DNA of 64,000 nucleotides from an uncultured Anaerolineales bacterium (GTDB taxonomy: Bacteria > Chloroflexota > Anaerolineae > Anaerolineales > UBA4823): contig CALFWB010000073.1 in the NCBI GenBank assembly GCA_937928795.1, forward strand, positions 1,521-65,520. The letters are read 5' to 3'. The notes under the pieces were generated by a model, which was given only the letters and a program-made list of their open reading frames with translations, ran no database searches and had not been told where the DNA came from. Position 1 is the stretch's first letter; every line of letters begins with the position of its first letter. The translations under genes and the position numbers were made by a program. Below are positions 8,298 to 63,605 of the stretch, one piece after another.

Positions 8298-8375
8298 GTG
8301 TGCACTCAAAAGTGGTTGGCAACATTGCTTTGTAGGACAACTCAATGAGTTGTCCTACAACTTTTGCGTGGACAC
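8298..8375 (+). repeat. 78-bp MITE-like palindromic element, copy 1
   Basis: GTGTGCACTCAAAAG...TTGTAGGACAACTCA-A-TGAGTTGTCCTACAA...GCGTGGACAC. Near-identical copies lie at 17063-17140, 39847-39924 and, inverted, at 52442-52519. Confidence 0.85.
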
Positions 8376-8846: not shown

Positions 8847-9521
8847 ATGTCTTTCTCCTCCACACTCGCGCGCCTTCCCCATTTCGAGTCCCTCCCTGAG
8901 GAGGTGAAAATCTCGCTCGAGCAAATTGCCATCTGCCAGACCTTCTCTGAGGATCAGGTGATCTATCTGGAAGGTGAGCCAGCAAAATCGGTTTACCTAT
9001 TGGAGAAGGGCTGGGTTAAGGCAGTTCGCCTCTCTCGCAAAGGGCGCGAACAAGCGGTCTTGGTCCTCAGCGCGGTTGATCTCTTTGGGGATGTTGCCCT
9101 TTTCACGACCGGTTTCTATCCAGGCACCGTAATCGCTCTTGAAGATAGCCTTGTCTGGGCATTGCCATCTCTCCGGTTAATGGAGAGAATTGAACGTTAT
9201 CCACAATTAGCACAAGCCTTTCTCCGTCACCTAGCCTTTCGTATCTTGCACCATTTGCAACTGGTAGAAGACCTTTCCTTGCGCAGCGTTGAAGCCCGTT
9301 TGGCAAGAACCTTAGCGCGCTATGCCGAGAATGTTGATGAGCAATGGATTGTACCCCGCCGGCCGTGGGCGACCTATGATGCCATGGCGGTTCGGCTGGG
9401 CACTGTTCGGGATGTATTAAGTCGCGCTTTGAAAACCCTGGAAGGGAAGGGGCTACTCAGGGTAGAAAAGCACCAAATTGTTCTTCTCCAACCACAAGAA
9501 CTTGCCGAATACGAGGGTTAA
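8847..9521 (+). CDS. Crp/Fnr family transcriptional regulator
   Basis: N-terminal cNMP-binding-type beta-roll (YLEGEPAKSVYLLEKGWVK...LFGD) and a C-terminal HTH (MAVRLGTVRDVLSRALKTLEGKG). No N-terminal Cys cluster. TATAAT at 8833-8838 sits only 8 nt from the ATG, so the mRNA may be leaderless. Confidence 0.85.
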   Translation: MSFSSTLARLPHFESLPEEVKISLEQIAICQTFSEDQVIYLEGEPAKSVYLLEKGWVKAVRLSRKGREQAVLVLSAVDLFGDVALFTTGFYPGTVIALEDSLVWALPSLRLMERIERYPQLAQAFLRHLAFRILHHLQLVEDLSLRSVEARLARTLARYAENVDEQWIVPRRPWATYDAMAVRLGTVRDVLSRALKTLEGKGLLRVEKHQIVLLQPQELAEYEG

Positions 9522-9607: not shown

Positions 9608-9952
9608 ATGCTGAACTCGGAGACAACCCTCTCAGATCAGGAATTACGCAAGCGAATTTATCAGGCCTTCGCTGCAGAGGAACAATTGCGGCGGTGTCAC
9701 CTACGGGTGGGTGTGGCAGGCGGTTTTGTCCATCTGGCCGGAAAGGTAAGCACTTTGAGCCTCTATACACTTGCAGAGAAGTTGGCAAAAAGCATTGCGG
9801 GGGTCAAGGGGGTGATCAACCGAATCGAAGCTCCAGGGGCTCCTTCTCCCTCCCGCGTCATTCATCTTGACGATAAAAACCAAACTTCACCCGCTTCGTC
9901 ACGTTCCCCAAGACAATCTCGTCCCCATAAACAAAAGGAGAACAAAAAATGA
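9608..9952 (+). CDS. BON domain-containing protein
   Basis: VGVAGGFVHLAGKVSTLSLYTLAEKLAKSIAGVKGVINRIE matches the BON pattern. The C-terminal tail is low-complexity. Confidence 0.75.
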   Translation: MLNSETTLSDQELRKRIYQAFAAEEQLRRCHLRVGVAGGFVHLAGKVSTLSLYTLAEKLAKSIAGVKGVINRIEAPGAPSPSRVIHLDDKNQTSPASSRSPRQSRPHKQKENKK

Positions 9953-10746
9953 AGGATAATCACAAACTTGGCATTCTGTTTTCCATCCTCGGTATCTTGA
10001 GTGGCATTTTAATCTTTTACCTTTTGGCTTCTCAATACAACCTGTTGATCGCTGTCAAAACCGCCGCTGGGCGGGCAGATGAAGCAGCTTCGGTGCGCAT
10101 CACCTATGCGCTGTTGGGTTGGATTGGCGCAAGCACCACGGCGATTTGGGCGGCCGTTTTGTATGGCTTTATTTACCACGAAAAATGGGCTTGGTTCTGG
10201 GGTGCCGTTGCAGCGACCATCCAATTATTGGCAGGGTTCTTTCCGGCGATTCCCGCTATGGATAGTCGCTTGCCCATGCCAACCTTGAGCGTTTTTGGGA
10301 TTGCCCTCATTCTGTGGTTCGGGATGCTGCTTATTGGAGGAGTGGAGAAAAGAACCATTGCGCTGACCTTTGTAGCCGGCTTAGCGTATGTACTCACATT
10401 TATCGATGGCGTTGCTCCGATTGCCAAATACACTACCTCTCACAATAACCCGTTTTGGAATGGAATGTACGTCATGTCGCAGCAAGTCTCTTGGTGGGGC
10501 GCTGCGGCTTGGGCGATCTTTATCTTCGCCGTGCTGCGCAAAAAATCTTGGGCACTGGCGGTGGGCATCTTTGCTGCGGTCATGTCTATGTTAGCCGGCT
10601 ATCCCCTGGGCCTCTATAACGCTCTGGTTGAAGTACACCGCTTTTCTATGTTCCTCCCTGCTCCTATTCTCAGTACGATCTTGCTGATCTACTTATTGCT
10701 GCCATCCACAAAGGGATTCTTGGATCGAGCAGCAACCGCTTCGTAA
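9949..10746 (+). CDS. hypothetical polytopic membrane protein (265 aa)
   Basis: About 7-8 hydrophobic helices. AAAGGAG lies upstream, and the start overlaps the BON stop (ATGA). Confidence 0.65.
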   Translation: MKDNHKLGILFSILGILSGILIFYLLASQYNLLIAVKTAAGRADEAASVRITYALLGWIGASTTAIWAAVLYGFIYHEKWAWFWGAVAATIQLLAGFFPAIPAMDSRLPMPTLSVFGIALILWFGMLLIGGVEKRTIALTFVAGLAYVLTFIDGVAPIAKYTTSHNNPFWNGMYVMSQQVSWWGAAAWAIFIFAVLRKKSWALAVGIFAAVMSMLAGYPLGLYNALVEVHRFSMFLPAPILSTILLIYLLLPSTKGFLDRAATAS

Positions 10747-10758
10747 ACGATCGATTTT

Positions 10759-10774
10759 TGTGACTTTTATCACA
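10759..10774. promoter_or_regulatory. CRP-type palindrome TGTGA-N6-TCACA
   Basis: TGTGACTTTTATCACA has perfect half-sites. It ends 74 nt upstream of the ATG at 10848, and TAATAGTAT (-10-like) lies about 25-30 nt downstream. Confidence 0.5.
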
Positions 10775-10847
10775 GATTCTCGAGAGGAACCGAGTAATAG
10801 TATGGAAAGAGCCGAACATTCATTTAGATTTAGAAAGGAGTTCTGGA

Positions 10848-11474
10848 ATGCACCCAACCCTTCTGGACCGGATCCTCTTGTTGGCTACCGGCTTGGTTGC
10901 CATTTACTTGTTGTGGCGGTTTTGGAGCCGCTATCGCCAAAGTAAACAGCTTTTCGATATCTACTATCTCATGGGCTTTGCTGTCCTGCTGGTATCGGGG
11001 CTTTTGCTCATCTTTCTGGACTATAGCATTTTAGCCTCGCCGCTTGTCCTCACAATAGCCAGCCTGATTCCTCTGGGGATTTCGCTCGGAATTGCTAATG
11101 AATACTTTCCCACGTGGAAGAAAGCCTTTGCTTGGTTTGCCTTAATTGGCTTCTTAGCCATTGCCATCACCAGCATTGCCGGTCTGGCAACCTTGAAGAA
11201 GATTGCCGTGCCACTCTTTCATGGAGTGGCTGGTTTGGTTATCTTTCTGGGACCTTTCCTGGCAAAGCATGCGCCCAAGGGATTTCAATGGGTGGGCGTT
11301 GGCGGCGCGTTGATCGGCATTGGTGGCATTGCCTTAGCCTTTTTGAGCGCCGGTCGACCCTTATTAGGCATTTTTACAGCAGAGCTGGTCTTTACCATTT
11401 TGGCACCGCTCTTGCTCTTAATGACCTTGGCCTTCGCTTGGGGTTTCGTCAAAGATATTCGGGCTGCTGGCTAA
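10848..11474 (+). CDS. hypothetical 6-TM membrane protein, paralog of 15009-15614
   Basis: Shares TLLDR, LLVSGLL, LIPL, EYxPxW, GFLAI, HGVAGLxIFL and GGALIGxxGxxLxFLxxGxPxLG with the 15009 product. AAAGGAG SD. Confidence 0.7.
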   Translation: MHPTLLDRILLLATGLVAIYLLWRFWSRYRQSKQLFDIYYLMGFAVLLVSGLLLIFLDYSILASPLVLTIASLIPLGISLGIANEYFPTWKKAFAWFALIGFLAIAITSIAGLATLKKIAVPLFHGVAGLVIFLGPFLAKHAPKGFQWVGVGGALIGIGGIALAFLSAGRPLLGIFTAELVFTILAPLLLLMTLAFAWGFVKDIRAAG

Positions 11475-11502
11475 ACATCTTGAAAGTTGACGAAGGATGA
11501 AT

Positions 11503-11516
11503 TTGACCAAAATCAA
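11503..11516. promoter_or_regulatory. FNR-type palindrome TTGAC-N4-ATCAA
   Basis: TTGACCAAAATCAA has one mismatch to TTGAT-N4-ATCAA. It ends 56 nt upstream of the ATG at 11572. Confidence 0.45.
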
Positions 11517-11571
11517 AAAAGGGAACAAGCAATAAGTTAGGATAGGATTTACAACAAGGAGGTTTTATAGG

Positions 11572-13107
11572 ATGCATACTTTGGCAAGACGATTGGATTT
11601 CCTCTTTCGTTCGACACGCGGCCTAACCCTCGTGGCAATTGCTGTTGTTTCGATCATCACTGCCTTGTTTGGGATGCTTTCCGGCCCGATGGCTGAATGG
11701 GGCGTGCGCGATTTTGTGGTGCGCGCCTTGGGAATGAAGTTAGTCCAAGCCGAGCGAGAAGGGCGGATCATTATGATTTATCACACCATTGCCAACACGG
11801 TTATTGCCATTGAAGTGTACTTTATCACCCAATTGGTGCGCATGAAACGGCATGAGCAAACCATCATCAACGGCACGGTGACGGCTGGTTACCTAACCGC
11901 AGCGATCTTTGGTTTGCTTTTCGCCTATTGGGGGCATCATTTTGTCTTTCATGGCTTATTCCTGCTCGGAGAATCGCTGATGTTTTTTGCAGGGATTTTG
12001 CTGGCCGTGGCGCTCTGGCCGTGGAAAAAAGAATATCGCTTGCCCGCCAACTCGCCCTACGCGCGCACGAAGCGGGGCGTGGATTTGGAACGGGTTGCCT
12101 TTTTTACCATGGCGGTTGCCACCCTGGTCTCGGCTGCCTTCGGAGCTGTCACTGGTTCCTACTGGGGCAACGGTCACGAAACCTTTTTAGCCGAAGACCT
12201 GATCCGAATTCCTCATAAGACCGATTTACAACGGGCGATTATCGGTCATTTGCACATCATGCTCACCCTCATCGCCATCGCCATCACCTTGATTGTCGGA
12301 CGCTGGAAGGATTTTAAGGGGCTGTTGCACCGAATTGCCATGCCCTTAATGATCAGCGGTACGATCGTCATTACGACTGGCGCGCTCTCGGTCGTCTGGC
12401 TGGAGTGGGCCCATACGATTATATATTTCGGTTCGGTGTTCGTCATGCTGGCGGCGCTCATGTATGTCATTTATGCCTGGGATATGCTCATTAAGGAAGG
12501 CACCCAGGGGGTGAAAAAACCCACCTTAGCACAGAAACTCAAAGCTTTGCTGCGCGATCCGCTGCGCTTTGGTCCCGGCTGGCAGATGGTCTTTATGAAT
12601 TTCACCGTCAGTGGTGTTGGGATTTTCATGGCGGTTAACCTCGGTGAAATTTTCCGCGTGTGGCCGCATCGTGAGGAACGTATCATCCTCACTGGTCACT
12701 GGCATATTCTCTCCGGCTTGATTGCCACAATTATTTTAATGTACTATGCTCATCTTTCCGGCTTGCAAGGCAAGGCTCGCCAGTGGTTCGGTTGGTTGCT
12801 AATCGTCCTTTCCGATCTGGCTTTTGGCGCAGTGACAGTTTTTTCTATGAAACGCCTCTTCGTCAGCGAAGCCAATCAGCAGAATTTGGTCAATTGGACG
12901 ATGCTCCTCGCCGATTTCGGCTTAGCAGCCGTACTTTTGATCTTGGCGCTCTTTTTGCTCTGGCGCCTATATGACCTTTTCCGCGAGCAGGGGATCTGGA
13001 AACATGAATATCAGGAGGAGAAGCGCCAAATTGCTGAGCAGGAGCTGCACGAACAGGAGCAAAGAGCAAAGGAATTGAAAGCTATTCTAAAGGAGGCGGC
13101 TAAATGA
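11572..13107 (+). CDS. uncharacterised 12-TM histidine-rich membrane protein with a C-terminal coiled-coil tail
   Basis: 12 hydrophobic helices. His motifs: IYHTIAN (TM2), GHLHIMLTLIAI (TM6), GHWHILSGLIAT (TM10) and GHHFVFHG before TM4. The tail is charged (EEKRQIAEQELHEQEQRAKELK). AAGGAGG SD. Confidence 0.75.
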   Translation: MHTLARRLDFLFRSTRGLTLVAIAVVSIITALFGMLSGPMAEWGVRDFVVRALGMKLVQAEREGRIIMIYHTIANTVIAIEVYFITQLVRMKRHEQTIINGTVTAGYLTAAIFGLLFAYWGHHFVFHGLFLLGESLMFFAGILLAVALWPWKKEYRLPANSPYARTKRGVDLERVAFFTMAVATLVSAAFGAVTGSYWGNGHETFLAEDLIRIPHKTDLQRAIIGHLHIMLTLIAIAITLIVGRWKDFKGLLHRIAMPLMISGTIVITTGALSVVWLEWAHTIIYFGSVFVMLAALMYVIYAWDMLIKEGTQGVKKPTLAQKLKALLRDPLRFGPGWQMVFMNFTVSGVGIFMAVNLGEIFRVWPHREERIILTGHWHILSGLIATIILMYYAHLSGLQGKARQWFGWLLIVLSDLAFGAVTVFSMKRLFVSEANQQNLVNWTMLLADFGLAAVLLILALFLLWRLYDLFREQGIWKHEYQEEKRQIAEQELHEQEQRAKELKAILKEAAK

Positions 13108-14066
13108 AGAACACCTTCTTGATCTTCATTGCCTTCTTGTCTTTTGCTTTGGGAGGATGCGCTACGGCGCCGGCGATTGGGGCGGTTACGCCACCGTTTA
13201 TAGACCCGGGCATCGATCCCGAAAGCTGGGCGTTGATCCCGGCTGGCACGTTTCCCTACGGCCAACATGATCACCTCACATCTGTTGATTACGATTACGA
13301 AATGATGGTTACCGATGTGACCAACGCCCAATTTGCCCGATTTTTGAACGCTGCCTTAGCGGAGGGCGTTTTGCGCATTGCAACCATCGAGGTCGAGATG
13401 GGCGGTAATGTGACAACCGTTGACGGGGTGAGTGTAGATTACCCCGGCGATGAGTTCCGCGGCCATAAACATGAAGAGGAAATCAAAGCCGGAGAGAAGT
13501 TGGTCATGCCCTTGGAAGAAGATGGCTTGCGCTTGCGTTGGAATGGCACAACCTTTGAGCCGATCGATGAGTATTCCAATCACCCTGCCACCATGGTCAC
13601 TTGGTTTGGGGCGAAGGCTTACTGCGAGTTCTACGGTTGGCGCCTGCCCAGTGAAGTGGAATGGGAAAAAGCGGCGCGTGGCACAGAACTGGTCGATGGC
13701 CGCGGCTTACCTTTCCCTTGGGGCACCGAAATCAAAGGCAACAATGCCAACTATTACTCCTCCTTCGACCTGTTCGAGAAGCTGTTCGGTAAATTGGGCA
13801 ACACCACGCCGGTCGGTTTCTATAATGGCAAGACGTACGATGGCTACCAGACCCTCGATTCACCCAGCCCATACGGCTTGTATGATATGGCCGGCAATGT
13901 TTGGCAATGGACGGGAGATGTTTACCCTGACCAACATTACCGCTATATGCGTGGGGGCAGTTTTTACTCCTACGAAGTCGATCTGCGGGTCTGGAAGCGC
14001 AATAGCGCTCACCCTTCGTATTACAGCCCGCAAGTGGGATTCCGCTGCGCCCGCCCGCTGCAGTGA
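13104..14066 (+). CDS. formylglycine-generating-enzyme (SUMF1/FGE-sulfatase) domain lipoprotein
   Basis: Lipobox FALGGC. FGE-fold motifs: HPATMVTWFGAKAYCEFYGWRLPSEVEWEKAARG, GNVWQWTGD, RGGSF, GFRCARP. The start overlaps the upstream stop (ATGA). Confidence 0.85.
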   Translation: MKNTFLIFIAFLSFALGGCATAPAIGAVTPPFIDPGIDPESWALIPAGTFPYGQHDHLTSVDYDYEMMVTDVTNAQFARFLNAALAEGVLRIATIEVEMGGNVTTVDGVSVDYPGDEFRGHKHEEEIKAGEKLVMPLEEDGLRLRWNGTTFEPIDEYSNHPATMVTWFGAKAYCEFYGWRLPSEVEWEKAARGTELVDGRGLPFPWGTEIKGNNANYYSSFDLFEKLFGKLGNTTPVGFYNGKTYDGYQTLDSPSPYGLYDMAGNVWQWTGDVYPDQHYRYMRGGSFYSYEVDLRVWKRNSAHPSYYSPQVGFRCARPLQ

Positions 14067-14097
14067 TGTATAATTTGGAGAACCTTAGGAAGGATAG

Positions 14098-15012
14098 ATG
14101 GCTAATTTCAAGCCTACTGGAGGAGTAAAAATGAATGGTGGCTCAAGCAGGTTGCAAACGGTGAAGCGTAAGATTCGCCTCTATTTGCCACTCATCAAGA
14201 GCTTACAGACGTTTCTCTTGCTGGCAACCGGGTTAGCTGGCTACATGAGCGCGCGTTGCCCGATCTTTCATTTTCCCACCTTGCTAGGATTAAGCGGCAG
14301 TCTTTTCTTAGCCATCAGTGGCTCAACTGTTTTGAACATGTGGTGGGATCGCGATATCGACGCCAAAATGGGACGCACCCAGAAGCGACCGTTACCTAGC
14401 GGCGAGCTCTCTGCTCAAGAGACTTTGCGTTTAGGGTTGGTTCTCTCGGTGATCGGCATGGCTTGGTCGGCCTTGCTCTCGCCGCTCTATGCCGTGGTCA
14501 TCTTTGCCGGTTGGTTCTTCGATGTGGTTGTCTATACCATTTGGCTCAAGCGGCGTACCTGCTGGAGTATTGTTTGGGGCGGTATTGCTGGGGGGATGCC
14601 AATTTTAGCCGGGCGTGCCTTAGGGACAGGATCAATTGATCTAATCGGCATCCTGCTAACTCTCTCGGTGCTGTTCTGGATCCCCACCCACATCCTCACC
14701 TTTGCCATGCGCTTCTACTCGGATTACCAGAATGCCGGCGTGCCCACTTTCCCTTCTTGTTATGGCTTTCCGGTCACGCGGGCGACCATCGCCGCTTCGA
14801 GTGTGCTAGCAGCCCTGACGATCGGCACAGCCAGCGTTCTGATCGGTGTCCAATGGGGCTTTGTGCGCCTGCTGGCGGTCCTCTCCAGTGGCTTATTGTT
14901 GCTGGCGATCGGGAGTCTGCTGCGCCCCAACGAACAGGTCAATTTTAGCTTGTTCAAATACGCATCTCTCTACATGCTGGCTTCGATGATTTTGTTGTCT
15001 ATTCAACAATGA
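14098..15012 (+). CDS. ctaB: protoheme IX farnesyltransferase (heme O synthase), UbiA family
   Basis: NMWWDRDIDAKMGRTQKRPLPSG is the UbiA/CtaB first Asp-rich motif. About 8-9 TM. An alternative ATG at 14128 has a stronger SD (GGAGGAG). Confidence 0.85.
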   Translation: MANFKPTGGVKMNGGSSRLQTVKRKIRLYLPLIKSLQTFLLLATGLAGYMSARCPIFHFPTLLGLSGSLFLAISGSTVLNMWWDRDIDAKMGRTQKRPLPSGELSAQETLRLGLVLSVIGMAWSALLSPLYAVVIFAGWFFDVVVYTIWLKRRTCWSIVWGGIAGGMPILAGRALGTGSIDLIGILLTLSVLFWIPTHILTFAMRFYSDYQNAGVPTFPSCYGFPVTRATIAASSVLAALTIGTASVLIGVQWGFVRLLAVLSSGLLLLAIGSLLRPNEQVNFSLFKYASLYMLASMILLSIQQ

Positions 15013-15614
15013 AACTCACTCTTCTTGATCGCTTGCTATTTCTTTCCACCGCTCTTCTGACTTCTTATCAGATTGCGGTTGGCATCGAAGGCTTAGGGAG
15101 CATCCCGATTTTTGTCTATACTCTCGGCTTCGGTGCCCTCCTGGTTTCGGGTTTGCTGATCTTGATCTTGGGTTTTGAGGTTTTGCGCAGCGCGTTGGTT
15201 GTGGTTGTTGCGACCCTGATCCCATTGAGCCTAGCCTGCGGCATGGTGTGGGAATATCTGCCGGCCTGGCGGGGAGTCTATGTTGTCTATGCAGTGGTTG
15301 GCTTCCTAGCAATTGGCTTGAGCCGCTTCGCCCGCATGTCGCCTCAGATTGCAACGCTAATTGTAGCTTTTGTCCATGGGGTGGCGGGCTTGACCATTTT
15401 CCTTTTACCGATCGGCGTGGTTGCAGCTCAACGGACGGCAGCCGGCTTCCTTTTGGTCAGCCTCGGAGGGGCATTGATCGGGCTGATGGGTTTACTACTT
15501 TCTTTTTTGCGCATGGGTTCACCCGTTCTGGGTCAAGAAAAGTTACTCAGGGCGTTTCCTTTGCTCTTTTTGATGATTACAGTGGCGTATGTATTGGGTT
15601 TCAATTGGCGGTGA
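15009..15614 (+). CDS. hypothetical 6-TM membrane protein, paralog of 10848-11474
   Basis: Motifs shared with the 10848 product are listed there. The start overlaps the ctaB stop (ATGA). Confidence 0.7.
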   Translation: MKLTLLDRLLFLSTALLTSYQIAVGIEGLGSIPIFVYTLGFGALLVSGLLILILGFEVLRSALVVVVATLIPLSLACGMVWEYLPAWRGVYVVYAVVGFLAIGLSRFARMSPQIATLIVAFVHGVAGLTIFLLPIGVVAAQRTAAGFLLVSLGGALIGLMGLLLSFLRMGSPVLGQEKLLRAFPLLFLMITVAYVLGFNWR

Positions 15615-15871
15615 AGCCGATTGACCATCTGCGGAACACAGGTGTTTGCCTCGTTAAGTATAGGGTGCGCAGTAGAGCGTGTCGGAACTCCCTGGGCAGG
15701 TCTTGCTGCGGCGGAGAGTATTTCCCTATTTTACCTGTGGCAGACTCAAGGCAAGATTTCTCCGCGCTGCGCTCATCGAAAGGAAAAACTTGCCGTGTTA
15801 CTGCGAGCAACGTGAGAAGTCTTGATGAGTCTAGGCAAAAAGTTTCTGTGTAAGTTAGAAAGGAGGTCACG

Positions 15872-16582
15872 ATGAATCCAATTCCTGGATGGGCAAAAGG
15901 ATTGCGCAATCTAGCTATAGTCCTCATGGGCATCACAACCTTTTTCACCCTTTCCAGCGGCGCTGGCACAGTTTGCGTCGCCCTAGCAGCCGAGCGCTTT
16001 GGGGAAGCCATGGCACCCCTTGTCCCTTACAAATGGGTCTATCTTCTCTTCGTCATCCTAACCCTTGTAGTGGGCGTGATGGGGGTACGCGCTATCGTGA
16101 TGTTGGTGCGCAGGCGAAAAGGCGCATTTCGCTTTACAATCTCAACCTTGATTGCCGGCATTCTGGTTGGGGGAATTCATATCATCGTTTCTCGCGCCCT
16201 GCGTGGTAAATCGATGCCCACTGATCCGGTGGTGTACACGACCTTACTGACATTGGTGCTCTTCCTAATCTTACGCTTGCCTCCGCTGCGAGAGAAGATC
16301 GATTTTGAGAAAGGAGAACAAGGAGCTCAGACAAATACCCTTGCTGCTGCGATCACTCTCCTCGCTTGCGGGATTCTAGCCCTAGCCATCCCCGTCTGGG
16401 CTGGGCCTTCCCATACCTTTGACTCCACTGGGATCAATTGGGCGAATGCATGGGCAACTTTCATAAATGCTTTTGGAGCGCTCCTATGTCTTGCAGGTCT
16501 GGTTATCTTGGTCGATCAAAAATACCGCTTAGGGCGATTCCGGAATAGAATCCAGTATCAAATTCGGGTACCCTTGCCCTAG
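15872..16582 (+). CDS. hypothetical polytopic membrane protein (236 aa)
   Basis: About 6 hydrophobic helices. GAAAGGAGG SD 6 nt upstream. Confidence 0.6.
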   Translation: MNPIPGWAKGLRNLAIVLMGITTFFTLSSGAGTVCVALAAERFGEAMAPLVPYKWVYLLFVILTLVVGVMGVRAIVMLVRRRKGAFRFTISTLIAGILVGGIHIIVSRALRGKSMPTDPVVYTTLLTLVLFLILRLPPLREKIDFEKGEQGAQTNTLAAAITLLACGILALAIPVWAGPSHTFDSTGINWANAWATFINAFGALLCLAGLVILVDQKYRLGRFRNRIQYQIRVPLP

Positions 16583-17010
16583 TCTGCCTCGTTCTGCCAA
16601 TCTCTCTTGCGGCGCAGCGCTTTGATCTGACTGCGCCGCCGCTTAGCGTTTAATCGCGCTTGGCGGGCGGCGGCGCTGGGTTGAGTAGGGTGGCGTGGTT
16701 TTGGCTTTTGAGCCGCCTTTTGCAGGAGCAGGATCAATTGCTCCAGTGCTTCGCGGCGGTTTTGTTCTTGGGTGCGATGGCGTTGAGCTTGGATGACCAA
16801 CTCACCCTGGAGATTGATCCGTTTGCCCGCCAAATTCAGCAAGCGCTCTTTCACCTCTGGGGGGATGTTTTCGTTTTGGAGGACATTAAGACGTAATTGA
16901 ACCGCGCTGGCAACCTTGTTGACGTTCTGTCCACCAGGACCTGCGGCGCGCACGAAATCCCATTGCAGATCTTCTTCATCAATTGAGAGATGGGGTGCTA
17001 TCCAGATCAT
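16579..17010 (-). CDS. arfB: alternative ribosome-rescue factor ArfB (peptidyl-tRNA hydrolase, class I RF domain)
   Basis: GPGGQNVNKV GGQ motif and a basic C-terminal tail (KPRHPT...RRRSQIKALRRKR). I trimmed the start to the ATG at 17010 (MIWIAPHLSIDE). Confidence 0.85.
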   Translation of the reverse strand: MIWIAPHLSIDEEDLQWDFVRAAGPGGQNVNKVASAVQLRLNVLQNENIPPEVKERLLNLAGKRINLQGELVIQAQRHRTQEQNRREALEQLILLLQKAAQKPKPRHPTQPSAAARQARLNAKRRRSQIKALRRKRDWQNEAD

Positions 17011-17062
17011 TGGGGCAAGTTTACCACCGATCTGGTTTTCCTTCCCCCTTTGAGCGTTTCCC

Positions 17063-17140
17063 GTGTGCACTCAAAAGTTGTTGGCAACATGGCTTTGTAG
17101 GACAACTCAATGAGTTGTCCTACAACTTTTGCGTGGACAT
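17063..17140 (+). repeat. 78-bp MITE-like palindromic element, copy 2
   Basis: Same sequence as copy 1 with a few substitutions. It lies 53 nt upstream of the arfB start. Confidence 0.85.
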
Positions 17141-29520: not shown

Positions 29521-32169
29521 TCAGGGGCTCTGATAGATGGTGACTTGCCCAGATTGATAAAGCGGTATAAAAGCGCGCTGGAATTTCACCTCATACAATC
29601 CGCCAGGGCAGTTGCCGCTGCCAGGGCGATAGGTGTTGCGTTCCAAATCGCCAACAAAGATATAACGGATTTGATATTGCTCCACAATTTGCTGTGCCTC
29701 TTCGAGGTTACGGGAACAATACAGTCGTTCGAGATCGGCTTGACGGCTGCCCATCTCGCGCGCCCCACCGCGCCACTGACTTTCATGTCCAGTCCAGCCT
29801 AAAACGATCGGCTGACCAGAGAGCGTTCCCACGCGGGCGTATTGGGTATAGCTCCCGCCGCTAGGACTGACCGCTTCGGCGACAACCCCCAACGGCGCTT
29901 GGCTTAGCCAGGCGATGGCTCGCATCTCGTCCGGATTTTGCTGCCATAAGTAGGCGGTGCTGTCGAGAGTGTAGCCTTGCGGAGGACGGAAGTTGTTGGT
30001 TTTGCTCAACGTAGCTAAGATGGTATAAACCATCCCACTTAGGATCATCAGGACAGATAGACCCAAACTGATCCTTGCCCAACCGTTGAATGACTGGCTG
30101 GCAGGATCGTTCTCTTGGGCGATGCGTCGCTTGGCTGGCCGGCGTGCAGATGGAGCAGGGCGGGGGGACACAGGGGCTAATTCTTCCATCTCGCTTCCTC
30201 TGTCCGATGGGTTGCTGAACCAAGCCACTGCATAGGCAGCCGCAATGCCCCATAACAACCAAGCTTGATAGAAAAACTTGAACACCGTGTTCATGCGCCA
30301 ACCGAACTGGTCGCGCAGGTAGAAAAATTCGGGAAACAACACCAGCAAGGTGCCACCAATGATTAGGAGGGCAACAAAGCCCCTCACCCCTGGCCCCTCT
30401 CCCGCAGGGAGAGGGGAGTCAACTTCCCCTCTCCCTCTGGGAGAGGGGAAAGGGGTGAGGGCATCCTCCCCCTGCGCTTTGGGAGAGGGGAAAGGGGTGA
30501 GGGCCATCAACAAAGCCAACCCGCCACTCAAAAGGATTCCCAGTGTCAACCAACCACCCGCGTAAAAGAGGCGCCGGTAAATAGCCACCGGCAACCAATC
30601 GCTGACCGTTGTTGCTCCGATTGAACCCATGAACAAACCACCTAGAGCAGGTAAAGCGCTGATGATAAGCCCCATGGCAAGAGAAATCGCCCAGAGGGCA
30701 GTGAGCAAGCCTACCGTCCAGCCAATCGCCTGCCTAAGCTGGGGTTGAAACTTATGGTAATGCCATCCTAGCCAAGCAAGGATCGGTACAAATAAAGGGG
30801 CAAACATCACCCACAGGTGCGCCCCGCGCGTAGGATAGACGAGGTTGGGCAAGAAACCGCCGGCCTGAGAGGAGAAGCCCAAGTAAAAGGGCAGGTAAAA
30901 GACGCCCCCCAAAATGCCTGTCCAAATCCCAAAGCGCAAGAAGTCTGTGAGGGTGCCGGCTTTCCCTAAGGCATAAGCGGCGGCACATAAAGCGACATAA
31001 ATCGGAAAATCCCACGTATTGAGAAACGCCAGTCCGCCCAAGATCAGCGCTGCAATCAGGCTTTCACTCAAGGGAATAGCGAGCGGGTAACGCAGGACGA
31101 AACGGCCGCTACCCAGAACGACCTGATTAGTCGCTGCAGGCTCTGGACGGCTCTGCCAAGAGCGCCAAAGGTTGAGCGCCAGCCCGATCGCCAAGAGGGC
31201 AAAGGGCATAGCCAGTACGTGCGGGTGCAAATCGGCAAGGACATAGGAAAAAGCCGGAAATTCATCGATAATCTCACGCGGCGCACCGCTGACATCATAA
31301 TCCTGCACCACCCGCGAAGCCCGCCACCACCAATACCACCGCTTGGGTAATCCATCCAAGGGCAGTTGCGGTGGATCGCTCAGATCGGCCAAATCCAGCC
31401 ACTTCCAGAAACCCGAAACCCACACGCCGTTGCGTTGTTGCCAAAACAAGCCGGCTGCATGGAGAACTTCCAGCAGCCCGCCTAAATTGCCCATCAACAG
31501 CACCAGCAAAGGCGCTAATAAGGGTTTCCACAGAAAGCGTTTGGCAAATTCAAGGCTCAACAGATCGCTCAATAAGCCATAGGCGCCCAGCGCACTCAGG
31601 GCAAAAATCAAAGAGATACCCAAATTAAACGCCACCGCTCCGGCAGTGCCACAAAGCTTCGCCAGCATGGCAACCAGAACATAGCCAAAATAGTAATAAG
31701 AGATTGCATACCCAGAGAGCCACGGGTCGTGAGGAGGGAAGCTCTCTGAGCGTAAGATGGCATTGATAAAAGCCAATTCCATCGGCTTTTCGGTGCCTAG
31801 CGCCTCCGGGTTGGCGGCGCGCGTCACCGCCAGAGCAGCAAGGGCAAGGAAGAACAAACCTTCCATGACCCCCACCTGCGTGCGGTTTTCCTTCCACCAA
31901 CGGAGAAATTCTGCCTTGCCGGTTTTGAAGAAGAGGAAAAGACTAACCCCACCAACAACGGCTAGGGCAAAGAGAATCCCTTCAGTACGGTTTTCGGTGA
32001 GGTGTAAAGAGGTTAGCAGCCAGAAGGCATAACCCCACAAAAGCAACCCCAAAGTACGGCTGAAGGCATAGCCACGCTGCGGCAGGTGACGAAAGAGCCA
32101 AAAGGCGATCGGAAAAGTCAGCCAACCGACTAGCGTAATCGCCGCATACCAAAGGAGAAAATCTCTCAT
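29521..32169 (-). CDS. DUF2298 (Chlor_Arch_YYY) family membrane protein
   Basis: HLPQRGYAFSRTLGLLLWGY N-terminus and a YYY motif (SGYAISYYYFGYV). More than 15 TM helices and a C-terminal soluble domain. The family assignment is from memory of TIGR03662/DUF2298. Confidence 0.75.
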   Translation of the reverse strand: MRDFLLWYAAITLVGWLTFPIAFWLFRHLPQRGYAFSRTLGLLLWGYAFWLLTSLHLTENRTEGILFALAVVGGVSLFLFFKTGKAEFLRWWKENRTQVGVMEGLFFLALAALAVTRAANPEALGTEKPMELAFINAILRSESFPPHDPWLSGYAISYYYFGYVLVAMLAKLCGTAGAVAFNLGISLIFALSALGAYGLLSDLLSLEFAKRFLWKPLLAPLLVLLMGNLGGLLEVLHAAGLFWQQRNGVWVSGFWKWLDLADLSDPPQLPLDGLPKRWYWWWRASRVVQDYDVSGAPREIIDEFPAFSYVLADLHPHVLAMPFALLAIGLALNLWRSWQSRPEPAATNQVVLGSGRFVLRYPLAIPLSESLIAALILGGLAFLNTWDFPIYVALCAAAYALGKAGTLTDFLRFGIWTGILGGVFYLPFYLGFSSQAGGFLPNLVYPTRGAHLWVMFAPLFVPILAWLGWHYHKFQPQLRQAIGWTVGLLTALWAISLAMGLIISALPALGGLFMGSIGATTVSDWLPVAIYRRLFYAGGWLTLGILLSGGLALLMALTPFPSPKAQGEDALTPFPSPRGRGEVDSPLPAGEGPGVRGFVALLIIGGTLLVLFPEFFYLRDQFGWRMNTVFKFFYQAWLLWGIAAAYAVAWFSNPSDRGSEMEELAPVSPRPAPSARRPAKRRIAQENDPASQSFNGWARISLGLSVLMILSGMVYTILATLSKTNNFRPPQGYTLDSTAYLWQQNPDEMRAIAWLSQAPLGVVAEAVSPSGGSYTQYARVGTLSGQPIVLGWTGHESQWRGGAREMGSRQADLERLYCSRNLEEAQQIVEQYQIRYIFVGDLERNTYRPGSGNCPGGLYEVKFQRAFIPLYQSGQVTIYQSP
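30381..30503. repeat. three GGGAGAGGGG/GGGGTGAGGG repeat units inserted in frame in the DUF2298 gene
   Basis: CCCTCACCCCTGGCCCCTCTCCCGCAGGGAGAGGGG, followed by two copies of CCCCTCTCCC..GGGAGAGGGGAAAGGGGTGAGGG. It encodes LTPFPSPKAQGEDALTPFPSPRGRGEVDSPLPAGEGPGVRG. Confidence 0.75.
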
Positions 32170-35100
32170 GGCCGGTTCACCTCGTAAATCACCGTTTGCC
32201 CGTCACGATACACTGCCCGCCACAACAAGCCATTGGCAGCCTCGAATTTCTCTAGGCCGGGTCCAGCATATTTGCCGCGCTCTTGTTGACCAAGGATGAT
32301 ATAGCGCACCTGATATTTTTCCAAGAAATTCATGGCTTCTTGGAGGTCGAGCGTGCGGTAGAAGGCTTCGATCTCCTCGATGCGTTGCGTCACCCAGGTT
32401 GCCGGCAAGATGGTGCGTTGCTGTTGCTGGTGCCATTCCCACCCGACGACGCCGGGCAAGCCAGTGTAGATGCTGAAACGCGAACCCCAGCGGTAGAGAT
32501 CGCGCAGGTTCGCTTCGACAATGACCGGTGAGCCTTTGACGTTATCCTGCATCCACAAGATGGCGCGGTAGTCTTGGCTGAGGTCCATTTCCCCCCAACT
32601 ATCGGTGTATTTGGAAGATGCCATGAAAGCCATACCATCGAGGTTGTGCGGCGCTGCCTCGCTCATCCGATCCTTCACTTTAGCGGTTGTAGCGGTGATC
32701 GGATAGAGCGCAGCCGAGAGGACGAGGAACAGAAAAACGCTCTTCCAGAGGTTTCCCCACGTGCTTCGCCAAATCAGCAAACTAGGTAACAGCCAGCCCA
32801 ACGCCGCGCCAGCCACTACAGCAAACATCGTCCACACTTGCAGATAAAACTTGAAGACCGTGTTCATCCGCCCAATGTCGCCAGCGACGACCACCACTTC
32901 TACCATTAGGGTGACCATCAAACCCGTGCCAACGAGGAAGAGGGCAAAGCGTTTCTCATCAGGTTGATCGTGGCGCAAGATGAGCACTCCAGCCCAAGCT
33001 GCCAGAGGGAGGACGATCCAGGCGATGGCAACTTGCAGCCAAGCCATCAAGCCGATGATCACAGCAACGAGAACGAAGCCGGCATACCCGATCCACGGCA
33101 GGTAAGGTTTGAGTTTCTGCAGGGCAGAGAGCGGCGTCTTCGCCATCCAGTCAATCGTTTCCCAAATCAGCCAAGAAACGATCACGAACAGGAATAAGCC
33201 CCAATGAACGAGGTAAGAAAAGCTGGGCGTGTGCGTGCCTTTCCACAGGTTGATGTCGGAATATCCCCAACCTAGCCAGCGCGTGAAGGGATAGAACCAC
33301 AAGTTTGAGGTCAACACCAGAAGCCCCACGCCAAAGAGGGCACTTGCCGAGGCTCGCAGCCACGCCTTGCCTAGCTGAGCGATTGGCTCTCCCTCTGCGT
33401 CTTCGGCACGGAGGGCTGGGCGCAACAGGCGGTAAGCCACGATGGCGCTGACCAACGCAAGATAAGGATAATAATCGGAATAGTTGGTCGGGCGCAGAAC
33501 GCCGATCAGCAGGCCGCCGATCGCTAAGCGCGCCACTGTCTGAAGCTTGGGCTTTATTTGGGGCAGGAGCAGAAACGACAAGGCAAAGGCTAGGGTCAAC
33601 AAAGCCAGCGGCAAGGCAAATAAATGAGCGTGTGGGTCACCGTATAACACGGTAAAAAAGGGAAATTCGGTGATCGGTTCAACATCGTTGGGAGCCGGGA
33701 TAGCCCGACTGGGAATCCAATACCAATCCCCCAAACTGTAAGGCAGATTCATCCCTTTCAAGACCTCGATAAATCCTTGCACCGTCCAAACGGCGCGGAT
33801 TAGCAGGTTGGCGCCCTCAATGCTGCCGCCCGGCGCAGCTAATTTTTGATAGCCGTTCAGGATCATGCGTAAGGTGCCCAGATTGCCTAAAACCGCCATG
33901 CCTAACGCAGCCGCTAGCCCACTGACCCAGTTAAGGGTGAAGTTGGGTTTGTTGGTGACCGCAGCGGATGTGCGCCAACGCGCCACCAGATTCCATCCTA
34001 ACGAGAATGCCCCTAAAGCGATCAGACTGAAGGTGGTCGGCAGGATGAGATTATAGGCAATAGCTGGGACAATCCCCAACCACTTGACCGGCACCCCCAT
34101 CAGCACGAAGCCGTAGTAGTAATAATTCAAATAGCCGCCAGCATACCAGGGATCATAAGGCGGGAAGGAGGTGCTTTTGAGAATCGCATTGAAATAGGCG
34201 AAATCCATGGGCTTCTCGCCGCCCTTCCAGGGGTGCCATAGGTCTGGGTTGCCCAAGCGGATGAAGAGGTCGAAAATGAAAAAGGCGAGAAAAAGCATTT
34301 CCACCCACAGGAATTGCTTTTTGCGTTGGCGAATTTCTTGGCTAAGCCCTTGCCGATCGAGCAGGGCAACCGCAAACGAGACCAACAACAGCACTCCAAA
34401 GACGAGACTGATTGTTAGTCGTTCAAAGGGCACCCGCACGGAACCGAGCAGCCATACGAAATAGGAAAGCAGCAGCAAACCAAATATGCGCGATAGAGGA
34501 TAGCCGCGGTCATCCAAGCCGGCAAAGACCTGACGCGTTAGCGGATAAACGCCCCAACCCAGAAGGCTGAGAGTCAAATACCAGACCAGGATGGCAATAA
34601 GATGATCGCGATTCTGGAGGGCGTTGCGGTTGAACAGTTCTGACCAAGTGCCGCCGCTCTGCTGTTCGCGCAGGCGGTCAGGCGGTAAGAGCAACAAACC
34701 GGGAAATTGGGAGGCTTTGCGCGGGGTTAGATGAATAACTTTCGAGAGATCGACAGCGGTAAGCAGCCGCCGAACGCTCAAGGAGTCATAATCGACGCTT
34801 TTACGGAAGATCAGCACCTTAGGGTGATCGTACACGGTGAAGGCTTCCTCGGCAAATTGGTCATTGATGCGCCACTTTCCTAAGCTAGGGAACGACTCAA
34901 AAACTTGCACCAGCTCGAAGCCCAATTTCCCTTGAAATTGACCCGGTTGAGCCACGTTGTAACACCAGATCACATCCTTTTCTTCGGGGCAGCCGATCAG
35001 CAGGCGATAATAGGTCGTTGAAAGCGGATAGCGCTCGGGCACGCGCGGCACGGTGCCCCACTGGCGATTGGAGGAGATAAAGATGTAGTCTGCTTGGTCA

Positions 35101-37310: not shown

Positions 37311-37356
37311 AGCCCTATGATAACACTCCCTAGCAGGGTGAGATGAGCCATTGCGG

Positions 37357-39810: not shown

Positions 39811-39846
39811 CAAGCTGGAAGAGCAGACAAGACAGGATTTAGGCGA

Positions 39847-39924
39847 GTGTGCACTCAAAAGTTGTTGGCAACATTGCTTTGTAGGACAACTCATTGAGTT
39901 GTCCTACAACTTCTGCGTGGACAC
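39847..39924 (+). repeat. 78-bp MITE-like palindromic element, copy 3
   Basis: Lies in the divergent intergenic region between 39810 (-) and 39969 (+). The central base of the palindrome is T instead of A. Confidence 0.85.
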
Positions 39925-52441: not shown

Positions 52442-52519
52442 GTGTCCACGCAAAAGTTGTAGGACAACTCAATGAGTTATCCTACAAAGCAATGTTGCCA
52501 ACAATTTTTGAGTGCACAC
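52442..52519 (-). repeat. 78-bp MITE-like palindromic element, copy 4 (inverted orientation)
   Basis: GTGTCCACGCAAAAGTTGTAGGACAACTCAATGAGTTATCCTACAAAGCAATGTTGCCAACAATTTTTGAGTGCACAC. Confidence 0.85.
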
Positions 52520-62109: not shown

Positions 62110-62165
62110 GACAAGACTTGATCCCTTGTAAAAAACGTAAGAAATCTTAATTAGGAGACCCAAGC

Positions 62166-63605
62166 ATGACTCTACAAAGCAACTACACTATGATCCAAGC
62201 CCCCCTGTTCCGCAAACTTTCGGATGCTCAAATTGAAAAAATTCATTATGCCAGCCTTGAAATCTTGGAACGCACCGGAGTGCGCCTCTACGAACCGCGC
62301 GCCATCGAACTGCTCAAGAAAAAAGGCGTGACTGTCGAAGAGGGTAACCGCGTGCGCATTCCGCCCGGCTTGGTCGAGTGGGCGCTCTCGATTGCCCCAA
62401 AGCGCACCACCTTGTATGATCGTCATGGCCGCCGTGCCATGCCTCTGGAAGGGTACAACACCTTTTTCGGGCCCGGTTCCGATTGCCCGAATGTGATCGA
62501 TTTGCGCACAGGCGAACGTCGTCCAGGCACCTTACAGGATATTGTTGAAGCCGTGACGGTCTGCGATGCGTTGCCGAATATCGACTTTCTCATGTCGTTC
62601 TGCATTGCCAACGACCTGCCAGCCGAGATTTACGATCGTCATCAGATGCGGGCCATGCTCATGTATAGCACCAAACCCATTCTCTTTGTCACCCTGGATT
62701 TCCCCGGTTGTGTGGACGCTGTGCGCATGGCAGAGGCTGTGGTTGGCGGGGAAGAAATTCTGCGCCGTCAGCCGATTTGCGCCCTCTATATCAACGTGAG
62801 CCATCCCCTGCGCCATAATCAAGAAGCTCTCGAGAAGCTGCTCTTCATGGCTGAAAAGGGCTTGCCCACTACTTATACACCGGTCGTCCTGCGCGGCGCT
62901 ACGGGCCCGGTCACTGCTGCAGGGGCAATTGCTTTGGCAAACGCCGGGGAGTTAGCCGGCTTGGTGATCGCCCAGCTTCAGCGCGAAGGCGCCCCCGTGA
63001 TCCTCACGGGCGGGGTGAACGATATGTTCGACATGCGCTCAACCATCGATTGCTATGCCGACCCTACCAATCGGGTGATGCTGGTTGAAGTGGCTCACCG
63101 CTATGGTTTACCCATCTTTGGACTGACCGGCTGCAGCGACTCGAAGCTGCCCGATGAACAAGCTGCCGCCGAGGCTGCCTTTTCAATCTTACTGGAGACC
63201 CTCGCCGGGGCGCAACTTGCCCACGATGTCGGCTACTTAGACAGCGGCATGACCAATTCCATTGAACAGATCGTCATTTGTGATGAACTGATTGCTTATG
63301 TCAAACAATTCATGAAAGGCTTAGAGGTCAACGAGGAAACGCTTGCTCTAGATGTGATCGAGAAAATTGGTCCGGATGGCGATTTCCTCGGCAACCCACA
63401 CACCCGCAAACATTTCAAAGAGGATTGGTATCCGACGCTGTTTGATCGACACAATTACGATGGCTGGGTGGCAGCAGGCTCGAAGACGTTGCGCCAGCGC
63501 GCTCGGGAGAAAGCCTTGCACATCTTAGAGACTCACCACCCTGAACCTTTGCCTGCTGATATACAAAAGCACCTCGATCAAATCGTTGCCGAAGCTCACA
63601 ACTGA
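62166..63605 (+). CDS. trimethylamine methyltransferase (MttB) superfamily protein, non-pyrrolysine type
   Basis: 479-aa uninterrupted ORF with MttB-family length and pattern as recalled (IHYASLEILERTGV..., FGPGSDC..., DSGMTNSIEQIVICDE). No in-frame TAG. Confidence 0.8.
   Translation: MTLQSNYTMIQAPLFRKLSDAQIEKIHYASLEILERTGVRLYEPRAIELLKKKGVTVEEGNRVRIPPGLVEWALSIAPKRTTLYDRHGRRAMPLEGYNTFFGPGSDCPNVIDLRTGERRPGTLQDIVEAVTVCDALPNIDFLMSFCIANDLPAEIYDRHQMRAMLMYSTKPILFVTLDFPGCVDAVRMAEAVVGGEEILRRQPICALYINVSHPLRHNQEALEKLLFMAEKGLPTTYTPVVLRGATGPVTAAGAIALANAGELAGLVIAQLQREGAPVILTGGVNDMFDMRSTIDCYADPTNRVMLVEVAHRYGLPIFGLTGCSDSKLPDEQAAAEAAFSILLETLAGAQLAHDVGYLDSGMTNSIEQIVICDELIAYVKQFMKGLEVNEETLALDVIEKIGPDGDFLGNPHTRKHFKEDWYPTLFDRHNYDGWVAAGSKTLRQRAREKALHILETHHPEPLPADIQKHLDQIVAEAHN

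Follow-up and report, generated by a model that had tools for sequence, protein, structure and literature searches.

A 64-kb stretch of DNA from an uncultured Anaerolineales bacterium (contig CALFWB010000073.1; the whole stretch is referred to below as the window) carries on its forward strand a cluster of eight genes (9608-16582), directly preceded by the gene of a Crp/Fnr-family regulator. On balance, this cluster is judged to encode an unannotated membrane oxidoreductase, an oxidase-like terminal reductase of a small oxidant which would depend on heme O, with oxygen slightly favoured as the substrate and nitric oxide (NO) a close second. Five of the cluster products are named here by their lengths, M265, T208, H511, T201 and M236 having 265, 208, 511, 201 and 236 residues, and T208 and T201 together are termed the T20x family. 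H511 (11572-13107, forward strand), a histidine-rich protein with twelve transmembrane segments, 18 histidines and no cysteine, is proposed as the catalytic subunit; it would work like, and is probably a very distant relative of, the heme-copper oxidoreductases, standing outside every described family. The preliminary description of this DNA had considered an undescribed heme O-dependent complex or its assembly machinery. An undescribed module linked to ctaB, the heme O synthase gene, is indeed what has been found, and the remote relationship of H511 to oxidase subunit I makes an oxidase-like enzyme more likely than a mere role in assembly.

The relationship is not apparent from sequence models. 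Searches of the cluster products against Pfam and NCBIfam returned no match at all for M265, T208, H511, T201 and M236, and none of the nine products, regulator included, matched COX1, COX2, CtaA, CtaG, DUF420/CtaM or NnrS; the profile searches recommended in the preliminary description have therefore not placed these membrane proteins in a known oxidase or assembly family. Searches of PDB sequences with a single H511 sequence and with two profiles likewise returned nothing. The earlier statements that no classical subunit I signature and no recognisable oxidase subunits are present hold for hidden Markov models (HMMs) of sequence families, but fail for H511 at the level of fold (Foldseek) and of profile-profile comparison (hhalign). 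An AlphaFold2 model of H511 built on 31 sequences, of medium confidence (predicted local distance difference test score, pLDDT, 74.7; predicted template modelling score, pTM, 0.81), shows twelve long helices and a charged C-terminal helix. When this model was compared with the PDB, the two best Foldseek matches were subunit I of the Thermus thermophilus ba3 oxidase (probability 1.00, template modelling (TM) scores 0.53/0.49, 529 columns), followed by a mitochondrial-type subunit I from a respiratory supercomplex (probability 0.95), and all non-oxidase matches (G-protein-coupled receptors, MATE, MurJ and MFS proteins) had TM scores of 0.2 or lower. By this comparison, and within the medium confidence of the model, H511 has the twelve-helix fold of subunit I.

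Profile-profile alignment has given a second, sequence-based line of evidence. An alignment of 18 divergent H511 relatives (22-74% identity) was compared with a profile of 15 oxidase-superfamily sequences taken from annotated records, comprising five of the A family (E. coli CyoB, QoxB and three CtaD), three of the B family (proteobacterial and archaeal, the ba3 sequence itself not being among them), three NorB of cNOR type, three qNOR and one FixN, where NOR stands for nitric oxide reductase. The local alignment reached an E value of 8.7e-5 over 369 columns (probability 60%) and the global one 5.2e-7 over 458 columns (probability 87%), a remote homology that appears with the superfamily-wide profile and becomes weaker or disappears with single-family profiles. 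The controls, which consisted of reversed queries and targets, the M265, T201 and M236 families and three unrelated polytopic proteins of the window, gave only short alignments with P of at least 0.04. Smaller oxidase profiles gave P values of 2.6e-4 to 5.8e-3, one of them having held a misassigned open reading frame that is absent from the final profile. On the same scale, the A family scores 1.6e-30 against the B family and 1e-10 against the NORs, compared with 8.7e-5 for H511; the far stronger scores between the known families indicate that H511 lies well outside the known inter-family range. A relationship to NnrS was also considered and rejected, there being no PF05940 match, and an alignment with the neighbouring NnrS-like family reaching only P 0.054 over 82 columns.

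In oxidase subunit I, six histidines act as ligands: one on helix 2 for the low-spin heme, one on helix 6 together with the HH pair of helix 7 for CuB or FeB, and the H-x-H of helix 10 for the high-spin and low-spin hemes, with an RR motif binding the heme propionates. Across the H511 family, Y70, H71, Y119, H127, E208, H226, H228, H281, R362, E369, H376, W377 and H378 are invariant, and the seven histidines remain so even in relatives whose identity falls to 22%. All alignments agree in matching H226 to the CuB/FeB histidine of helix 6, H376 and H378 to the H-x-H of helix 10, and K427/R428 to the RR motif after helix 11. H281 was aligned with the helix-7 HH in three runs, with only one histidine present at that place, and H228 and H127 (helix 4) are additional invariant histidines beyond the oxidase ligand set. 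To judge from the sequence, the count of three candidate metal-site histidines would have been kept and their layout changed, with H226-x-H228 on helix 6 and H281 after helix 7. The histidine-bearing helices of H511 are all even-numbered, with the histidines near their N-terminal ends; together with the arginine-rich N-terminus, this pattern in model and sequence suggests that all the histidines lie towards the outer face, as in the oxidases. Position 285, four residues after H281, is a tyrosine in at least 95% of 82 Anaerolineae sequences, and across representatives of the family it is tyrosine in 25 and asparagine in 15. An H-x3-Y arrangement is the spacing of the cross-linked histidine-tyrosine pair in A- and B-type oxidases, where it is located on helix 6. 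Since H511 escapes the COX1 model and lacks a canonical subunit II, and since fold and profile comparisons agree and no fewer than three of the six histidine ligands are in register, it has been classed as a probable, very distant relative.

The conservation of the cluster has been studied in a wider set of genomes. H511 relatives form more than 3,000 database protein clusters and have been detected in at least 451 of the roughly 185,000 genomes of a set scanned at one genome per species. The top 120 relatives, 73-92% identical, come from metagenome-assembled genomes (MAGs) of Anaerolineales or Chloroflexota, and those which carry a name are recorded as 'hypothetical protein', with a few Joint Genome Institute records misnamed 'large-conductance mechanosensitive channel'. 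The best 80 of the 451 genomes, nearly all Chloroflexota and mostly Anaerolineae, with one Bacteroidota label and one unclassified, were combined with the complete genome CP129480.1 into a set of 81 loci searched by tblastn. In this set, H511 was detected in 81 loci, the FGE-like protein in 80, CtaB in 72, T201 in 60, T208 in 49, M265 in 46, M236 in 45, a Crp/Fnr gene within 10 kb in 38 and the BON-domain protein in 10. In the 64 related loci whose DNA extends 3.3 kb or more beyond H511, the gene is followed by the FGE-like gene in 64/64, ctaB in 63/64 and a T20x gene in 56/64, the exact order FGE-ctaB-T201 being found in 56/64. The co-occurrence with ctaB that had been suggested as a check is therefore borne out, and it recurs beside distant homologs. 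Median identity to the window protein is highest for H511 (73%), followed by the FGE-like protein (69%), T208 (68%), CtaB (64%), M265 (58%), T201 (50%) and M236 (40%). The arrangement of the cluster is conserved and non-accidental. Homologs of CyoA, CyoB, CyoC, CyoD, B-type and cbb3 oxidases and NorB are absent within 10 kb of H511 in all 81 loci, and a tblastn search of the window found no A-, B- or C-type oxidase or NorB subunits. The one Bacteroidota-labelled MAG (locus L031, CAUJDD010000049.1) contains the complete core with an H511 that is 72% identical; its label is probably a binning error, a transfer being less likely.

The gene following H511 encodes a probable lipoprotein of 320 residues (13104-14066, forward strand) with a full-domain FGE-sulfatase fold (PF03781, 4.7e-39), whose nearest relative of solved structure, SUMF2/pFGE, is catalytically inactive (1y4j, 1.7e-18). 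It contains three cysteines, C19, C174 and C315, the first being conserved in a lipobox-like LGGC context. The stretch RGGSFYSYEVDLRVW, which we take to be the position of the catalytic Cu(I)-binding cysteine pair of FGE near the C-terminus, has no cysteine where that pair is expected, as judged by eye and not by alignment, and the protein accordingly reads as one without the catalytic pair, so far as its sequence can tell. The usual second subunit, with its cupredoxin or cytochrome c domain, has no counterpart in the cluster, and a lipoprotein of FGE fold appears to take its position. A natural fusion of 785 residues, P0122, joins an H511 module (56% identical), an extra hydrophobic segment and an FGE-like domain (44%); its protein cluster has 8 members, and P0122 itself has been recorded on 7 contigs. 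The extra segment is what topology demands, as the domain would have to be exported from an otherwise cytoplasmic C-terminus. The fusion is strong evidence that H511 and the FGE-like protein act together, with the latter on the outer face, the position that subunit II or NorC occupies in known enzymes. A NirV-like comparison, made with a stretch of S. meliloti pSymA, gave no FGE-like match.

T208 (10848-11474) and T201 (15009-15614), both on the forward strand, were described earlier as paralogs of six helices each. Their paralogy is genuine, with 33-40% identity and one invariant histidine (His125 in T208, His123 in T201), but the AlphaFold model of T201 (pLDDT 91.1) shows seven helices. With this model Foldseek returned generic seven-helix bundles and nothing else. 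The possibility that T208, T201, M265 or M236 represent oxidase subunits II, III or IV has been rejected, as hhalign against CyoA, CyoC and CyoD gave P of at least 0.025. The T20x family accompanies H511 across domains of life: in Infirmifilum lucidum (Thermofilaceae; L095, CP062310.1) the H511 homolog is directly preceded by a T20x-like gene, and in Candidatus Hodarchaeales a T20x-like gene, the H511 homolog and a CtaB-like gene (TIGR01473, 204 bits) follow one another in this sequence, the T20x-like genes beside archaeal H511 homologs being recognised by hhalign with probabilities of 99.0-99.4. One MAG of no assigned lineage has, in succession, a Crp/Fnr gene, an H511 homolog and an overlapping CtaB-like gene (177 bits), and two distant homologs with Asn-285 stand alone, without ctaB. 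These gene orders indicate that the stable core is H511 with T20x, usually joined by ctaB, and from the sequences compared the FGE-like subunit appears to be an elaboration of the Anaerolineae. In Infirmifilum lucidum the H511/T20x pair also adjoins a BREX-type defence locus (L095, 10349-15420; BrxL and a large methyltransferase), an adjacency which is probably a coincidence.

CtaB (304 residues; 14098-15012, forward strand) was correctly recognised as a heme O synthase in the preliminary description. It matches UbiA (PF01040, 1.4e-49) and scores 221.1 bits with TIGR01473, above the equivalog cut-off of 210.3 bits, which makes it a curated heme O synthase. By blastp, the window protein has 70 orthologs in the related loci. 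As a separate observation, E. coli CyoE used as a tblastn query misses the window ctaB at an E value of 0.1; this failure, despite an HMM score above the cut-off, shows that even this recognisable member of the cluster is strongly divergent.

Control by a Crp/Fnr-type regulator had been suggested earlier and has received some support, with control itself being deduced from the sequences. The regulator (224 residues; 8847-9521, forward strand) has Crp/Fnr domains (cNMP_binding 4.9e-20, HTH_Crp_2 5.3e-09) and NCBIfam equivalog scores far below their cut-offs, and it contains a single cysteine, from which it follows that it is not an iron-sulfur sensor of FNR type. A dyad, TTTGACCAAAATCAAA (11502-11517), a candidate Crp/Fnr-type operator, lies 55 bp upstream of H511 and contains a strict FNR box, TTGA-N6-TCAA, at 11503-11516. 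The strict box was rejected as a conserved operator because it was found in just 1 of 79 other loci. A looser dyad, TTTG-N8-CAAA, was detected 70-180 bp ahead of the H511 gene in 23 of 80 loci, where shuffled sequences would give 0.34, and in none of 81 coding controls; its commonest form in the other loci is ATTTGTCTTTTGTCAAAGAC. Shared ancestry inflates this count, but between loci whose proteins are about 70% identical it is unusual for an intergenic element to be conserved. The looser dyad is likely to be an operator of the Crp/Fnr family, a candidate put forward on its sequence.

Taking these results into account, a mechanism can be proposed in which H511 would be the catalytic subunit, a deeply divergent relative of heme-copper oxidoreductase subunit I. 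A low-spin heme may be held by H378 together with H71 or another histidine, and a high-spin heme O by H376, with a three-histidine metal site (H226, H228, H281) presumably beside the high-spin heme. The dedicated CtaB would provide heme O to H511, and the FGE-fold lipoprotein would cap the outer face, replacing the cupredoxin or cytochrome c of a subunit II. The T20x proteins are seen as membrane partners, whose invariant histidine, along with H127, might, speculatively, bind a further heme. The quinol pool would be the probable source of electrons, with a NapH-like iron-sulfur protein as intermediary in some genomes, and the Crp/Fnr-type regulator probably activates the cluster when oxygen is low or nitrosative stress is present. 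Oxygen, removed by scavenging or used in micro-oxic respiration, is slightly favoured as the substrate given the proposed dependence on heme O, which recalls the place of cyoE in the bo3 operon, and the H281-x3-Y285 motif of the ctaB-linked subgroup.

A number of observations weigh against a place for H511 among the heme-copper oxidoreductases or against its action as a terminal reductase. Neither H511 nor its family matches COX1 in Pfam, with 31 members searched at an E value of 10, and a single H511 sequence gives no signal in hhalign, a result which explains why annotation has missed the protein. The A-family profile alone reaches only P 3.7e-3 over 366 columns, and hhalign with B-family-only and NOR-only profiles is not significant; the similarity therefore rests on superfamily-invariant columns and on a medium-confidence model, whose TM score is about 0.5 with a root-mean-square deviation of 8 Å. 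In the best-scoring run H281 falls 9-10 residues downstream of the helix-7 HH, H71 on helix 2 lies six residues from the canonical low-spin heme ligand, and the loops with E208 and R362/E369 have pLDDT below 50. The cluster has no obvious redox subunit for the entry of electrons. In addition, denitrification genes adjoin the cluster in just 2 of 81 loci, and Infirmifilum lucidum, which carries an H511 homolog, is presumably an anaerobe.

Other explanations of the same data deserve consideration. The architecture proposed here could equally be that of an enzyme acting on NO, the missing NOR of Anaerolineae that possess NirS or NirK, in which the three histidines would hold a non-heme metal, with outer-face glutamates nearby, and protons would be taken up from the outer side, as in cNOR. 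We regard this as possible and rather doubtful, despite a varied body of supporting evidence. In CP129480.1 the cluster is directly bordered by a cd1 nitrite reductase gene and three Crp/Fnr genes, a cytochrome d1 gene is found at one further locus and NnrS-like genes at 6, the single-cysteine regulator is not an oxygen-sensing FNR, the outer-face loops beside the metal-site helices carry the invariant E208 and E369, and asparagine occupies position 285 in about a third of the representatives. Occurrence in anoxic habitats points in the same direction. It has been argued that members of the oxidase superfamily without the active-site tyrosine do not reduce oxygen, and that NO reduction is compatible with several layouts of the active site (PMC11214002); moreover, Levilinea saccharolytica has NirS with no NOR reported (PMC4653796). 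Against this stand the rarity of the nir linkage (the 2/81 mentioned above), the H-x3-Y motif in the ctaB-linked subgroup, the lack of a significant alignment with the NOR-only profile, and the fact that, among the NORs treated in PMC11214002, only eNOR has been described with a farnesylated heme, whereas the linkage to ctaB in the present cluster is almost obligatory. We hold with similarly low confidence the more far-reaching proposal of a new enzyme class outside the described heme-copper families, composed of H511, T20x and the FGE-like protein, with heme O and a rearranged three-histidine site, which would serve NO reduction or other small-oxidant chemistry in Anaerolineae and would have a pre-diversification origin, as the relatives in Hodarchaeales and Thermofilaceae might suggest.

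Two further explanations dispense with catalysis by H511. In one, the cluster would handle heme O and perhaps copper in the assembly or maturation of a canonical oxidase encoded elsewhere in the genome, with H511 as a heme O chaperone or insertase. The central ctaB, translationally coupled to a small membrane protein, would suit such a role, as would the metal-handling members of the FGE fold, the CopD-like and NapH/CcoG-like genes among recurrent neighbours and the A-family oxidases present elsewhere in some Anaerolineae genomes (PMC4653796). We nonetheless consider it improbable, because H511 is the best-conserved gene, with seven invariant histidines arranged as in a catalytic subunit I, and has no similarity to the CtaA, CtaG, Surf1 or DUF420 families; the absence of oxidase structural genes from the window and within 10 kb in the 81 loci, and the existence of distant H511 homologs without ctaB, argue in the same sense. 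The other, which we find more improbable still, is that the likeness to oxidases is superficial, H511 being a transporter or a sensor, whether for heme, for a metal or for some other ligand, that has the FGE-like protein as its extracytoplasmic binding partner. A twelve-helix protein with a lipoprotein partner is typical of uptake systems, sequence models detect no oxidase, the TM score of about 0.5 is modest, and the hhalign probabilities of 60-87% stay below 95%; yet Foldseek finds no transporter fold above a TM score of 0.2, real transporters from the window yield no hhalign signal, the matches of ligand histidines and the arginine pair recur in every alignment, and the linkage to ctaB would be left without explanation. 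The reading of the cluster as an oxidase-like terminal reductase dependent on heme O is for these reasons retained.

The remaining members of the cluster are less constant. The nine co-directional genes announced in the preliminary description are eight within 9608-16582, the ninth being the regulator gene, which lies outside the start given there. The first is a peripheral, non-core BON-domain protein of 114 residues (9608-9952; BON 3.9e-12), whose identity, like that of the FGE-like protein, has been upheld by Pfam. It is followed by M265, a polytopic membrane protein (9949-10746), and the cluster ends with M236 (15872-16582), its least conserved member; all three are on the forward strand. 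M265 has no conserved histidine or cysteine and often occurs in two to four copies per locus; further M265-like paralogs are found in 32 loci, and a 294-residue neighbour family is homologous to it (hhalign probability 97.9). M236 has conserved C35, H181 and R111. All three ATGA start/stop overlaps that had been noted are real, at 9949 (BON/M265), 13104 (H511/FGE-like) and 15009 (ctaB/T201). The absence of a subunit II, CtaA and CxxCH has likewise been confirmed by Pfam, NCBIfam and a motif check, CxxCH being absent from all nine products, and Pfam detects no cupredoxin among them.

Recurrent neighbours of the cluster in the 81 loci comprise genes for a NapH/MauN-like membrane ferredoxin (27 loci), a monoheme cytochrome c (10), DUF4405 (9), CopD-like (7) and NnrS-like (6) proteins. 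A conserved denitrification neighbourhood has been considered and rejected, since the 105 non-core neighbour families examined with Pfam are heterogeneous and include a single cytochrome d1 match; the only genes that recur besides those of the core encode NapH-like, M265-like and Crp/Fnr proteins. Upstream of the cluster, a lipoprotein-like protein of about 510-525 residues has been observed in nine loci (L001, 3867-5396, and 8 others, such as L033, 4692-6272), consisting of two tandem halves of about 250 residues with near-identical motifs and a weak FmdE-like match (5.7e-4).

Elsewhere the window encodes transporters, sensor kinases, DUF2298 proteins and the like, and contains no respiratory genes. 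An RF-1-domain protein of 163 residues, similar to ArfB or peptidyl-tRNA hydrolase, is encoded convergently with the cluster (16579-17070, reverse strand), and the 3' end of its gene shares 4 bases with the M236 stop. A near-perfect palindrome of 31 nt, TTGTAGGACAACTCAATGAGTTGTCCTACAA, is present in 4 intergenic copies (8330-8360, 17095-17125, 39879-39909 and 52457-52487), with 0 expected; it lies at the centre of a larger nested hairpin, about 80-95 nt in length and similar to a repetitive extragenic palindrome (REP) or a miniature inverted-repeat transposable element (MITE), and two copies of the same orientation, 8.7 kb apart, flank the entire cluster. Three very large membrane proteins are encoded in a row at 29521-39894 (reverse strand), two with DUF2298 (882 and 1714 residues) and one similar to PMT_2 glycosyltransferases (845 residues), and may constitute a cell-envelope glycosylation module. 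Unrelated to the cluster, the gene of a molybdopterin (xanthine dehydrogenase-family) large subunit is followed by that of an MttB-family trimethylamine methyltransferase homolog (59839-63605).

Comparison with well-studied systems helps to define what is distinctive about the cluster. The ba3 subunit I of Thermus thermophilus (PDB 3s8f, chain A), its best structural match, shares with H511 a twelve-helix core and a similar length, and in alignments with B-family subunit I profiles the helix-10 H-x-H, the helix-6 metal histidine and the arginine after helix 11 correspond. H511 nevertheless has only about 15% sequence identity to ba3 subunit I, no COX1 match and no CuA subunit II beside it, and differs in having one histidine in place of the helix-7 HH, a second helix-6 histidine, a helix-2 histidine shifted by six residues, a further invariant histidine (His127) on helix 4 and a C-terminal helix that is long and charged. 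The bo3 oxidase of E. coli (cyoABCDE) likewise has a heme O synthase gene within its structural operon, is of quinol type without CuA or cytochrome c, and probably resembles the proposed enzyme in using heme O as the high-spin cofactor; the window cluster, however, has no homologs of CyoA, CyoC and CyoD, and H511 lies beyond any inter-family distance. In the cNOR/qNOR, eNOR, sNOR, gNOR and nNOR enzymes there is precedent for a remodelled active site, loss of the cross-linked tyrosine and anaerobic or micro-oxic use, and they have a Crp/Fnr-type regulatory context in common with the H511 cluster, which nirS occasionally adjoins. Of these enzymes, gNOR replaces one active-site histidine, and eNOR, sNOR, gNOR and nNOR are close to the B family and retain cupredoxin-type second subunits (Murali et al., 2024; PMC11214002). 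In contrast to the NOR families, H511 has a partner of FGE fold, no cupredoxin subunit and a near-obligatory linkage to ctaB. NnrS (PF05940), a heme- and copper-containing protein of twelve transmembrane segments involved in the NO response, is likewise polytopic and histidine-bearing and occurs in nitrosative-stress contexts.

As for the partner protein, SUMF2/pFGE (1y4j) has the same fold as the FGE-like protein and, like it, lacks the Cu-binding cysteine pair, and PorK/GldK are also probable lipoproteins of this fold. The FGE-like protein differs from both in being coupled to, and sometimes fused with, an oxidase-like membrane protein, an association of which the searches made returned no description. 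No prior description of the cluster was found in the literature searched either, and an Asgard terminal-oxidase preprint describes canonical cyoABCD only.

The heme-copper oxidoreductases are central to aerobic respiration and to NO reduction, and conclusions on how oxygen and nitrogen cycling developed over time are drawn from their family tree. Pfam, NCBIfam and routine annotation all overlook the H511 family, and most of its carriers are Anaerolineae, which are abundant in wastewater, anammox and sediment communities. The natural fusion and the compact four-gene core make the hypothesis testable by expression. If H511 is an active reductase, metabolic reconstructions of these carriers miss a terminal sink for O2 or NO, and ctaB would no longer mark canonical oxidases alone. 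The known range of active sites and subunits in the superfamily would then be widened, with a partner of FGE fold taking the place of the cupredoxin or cytochrome c subunit.

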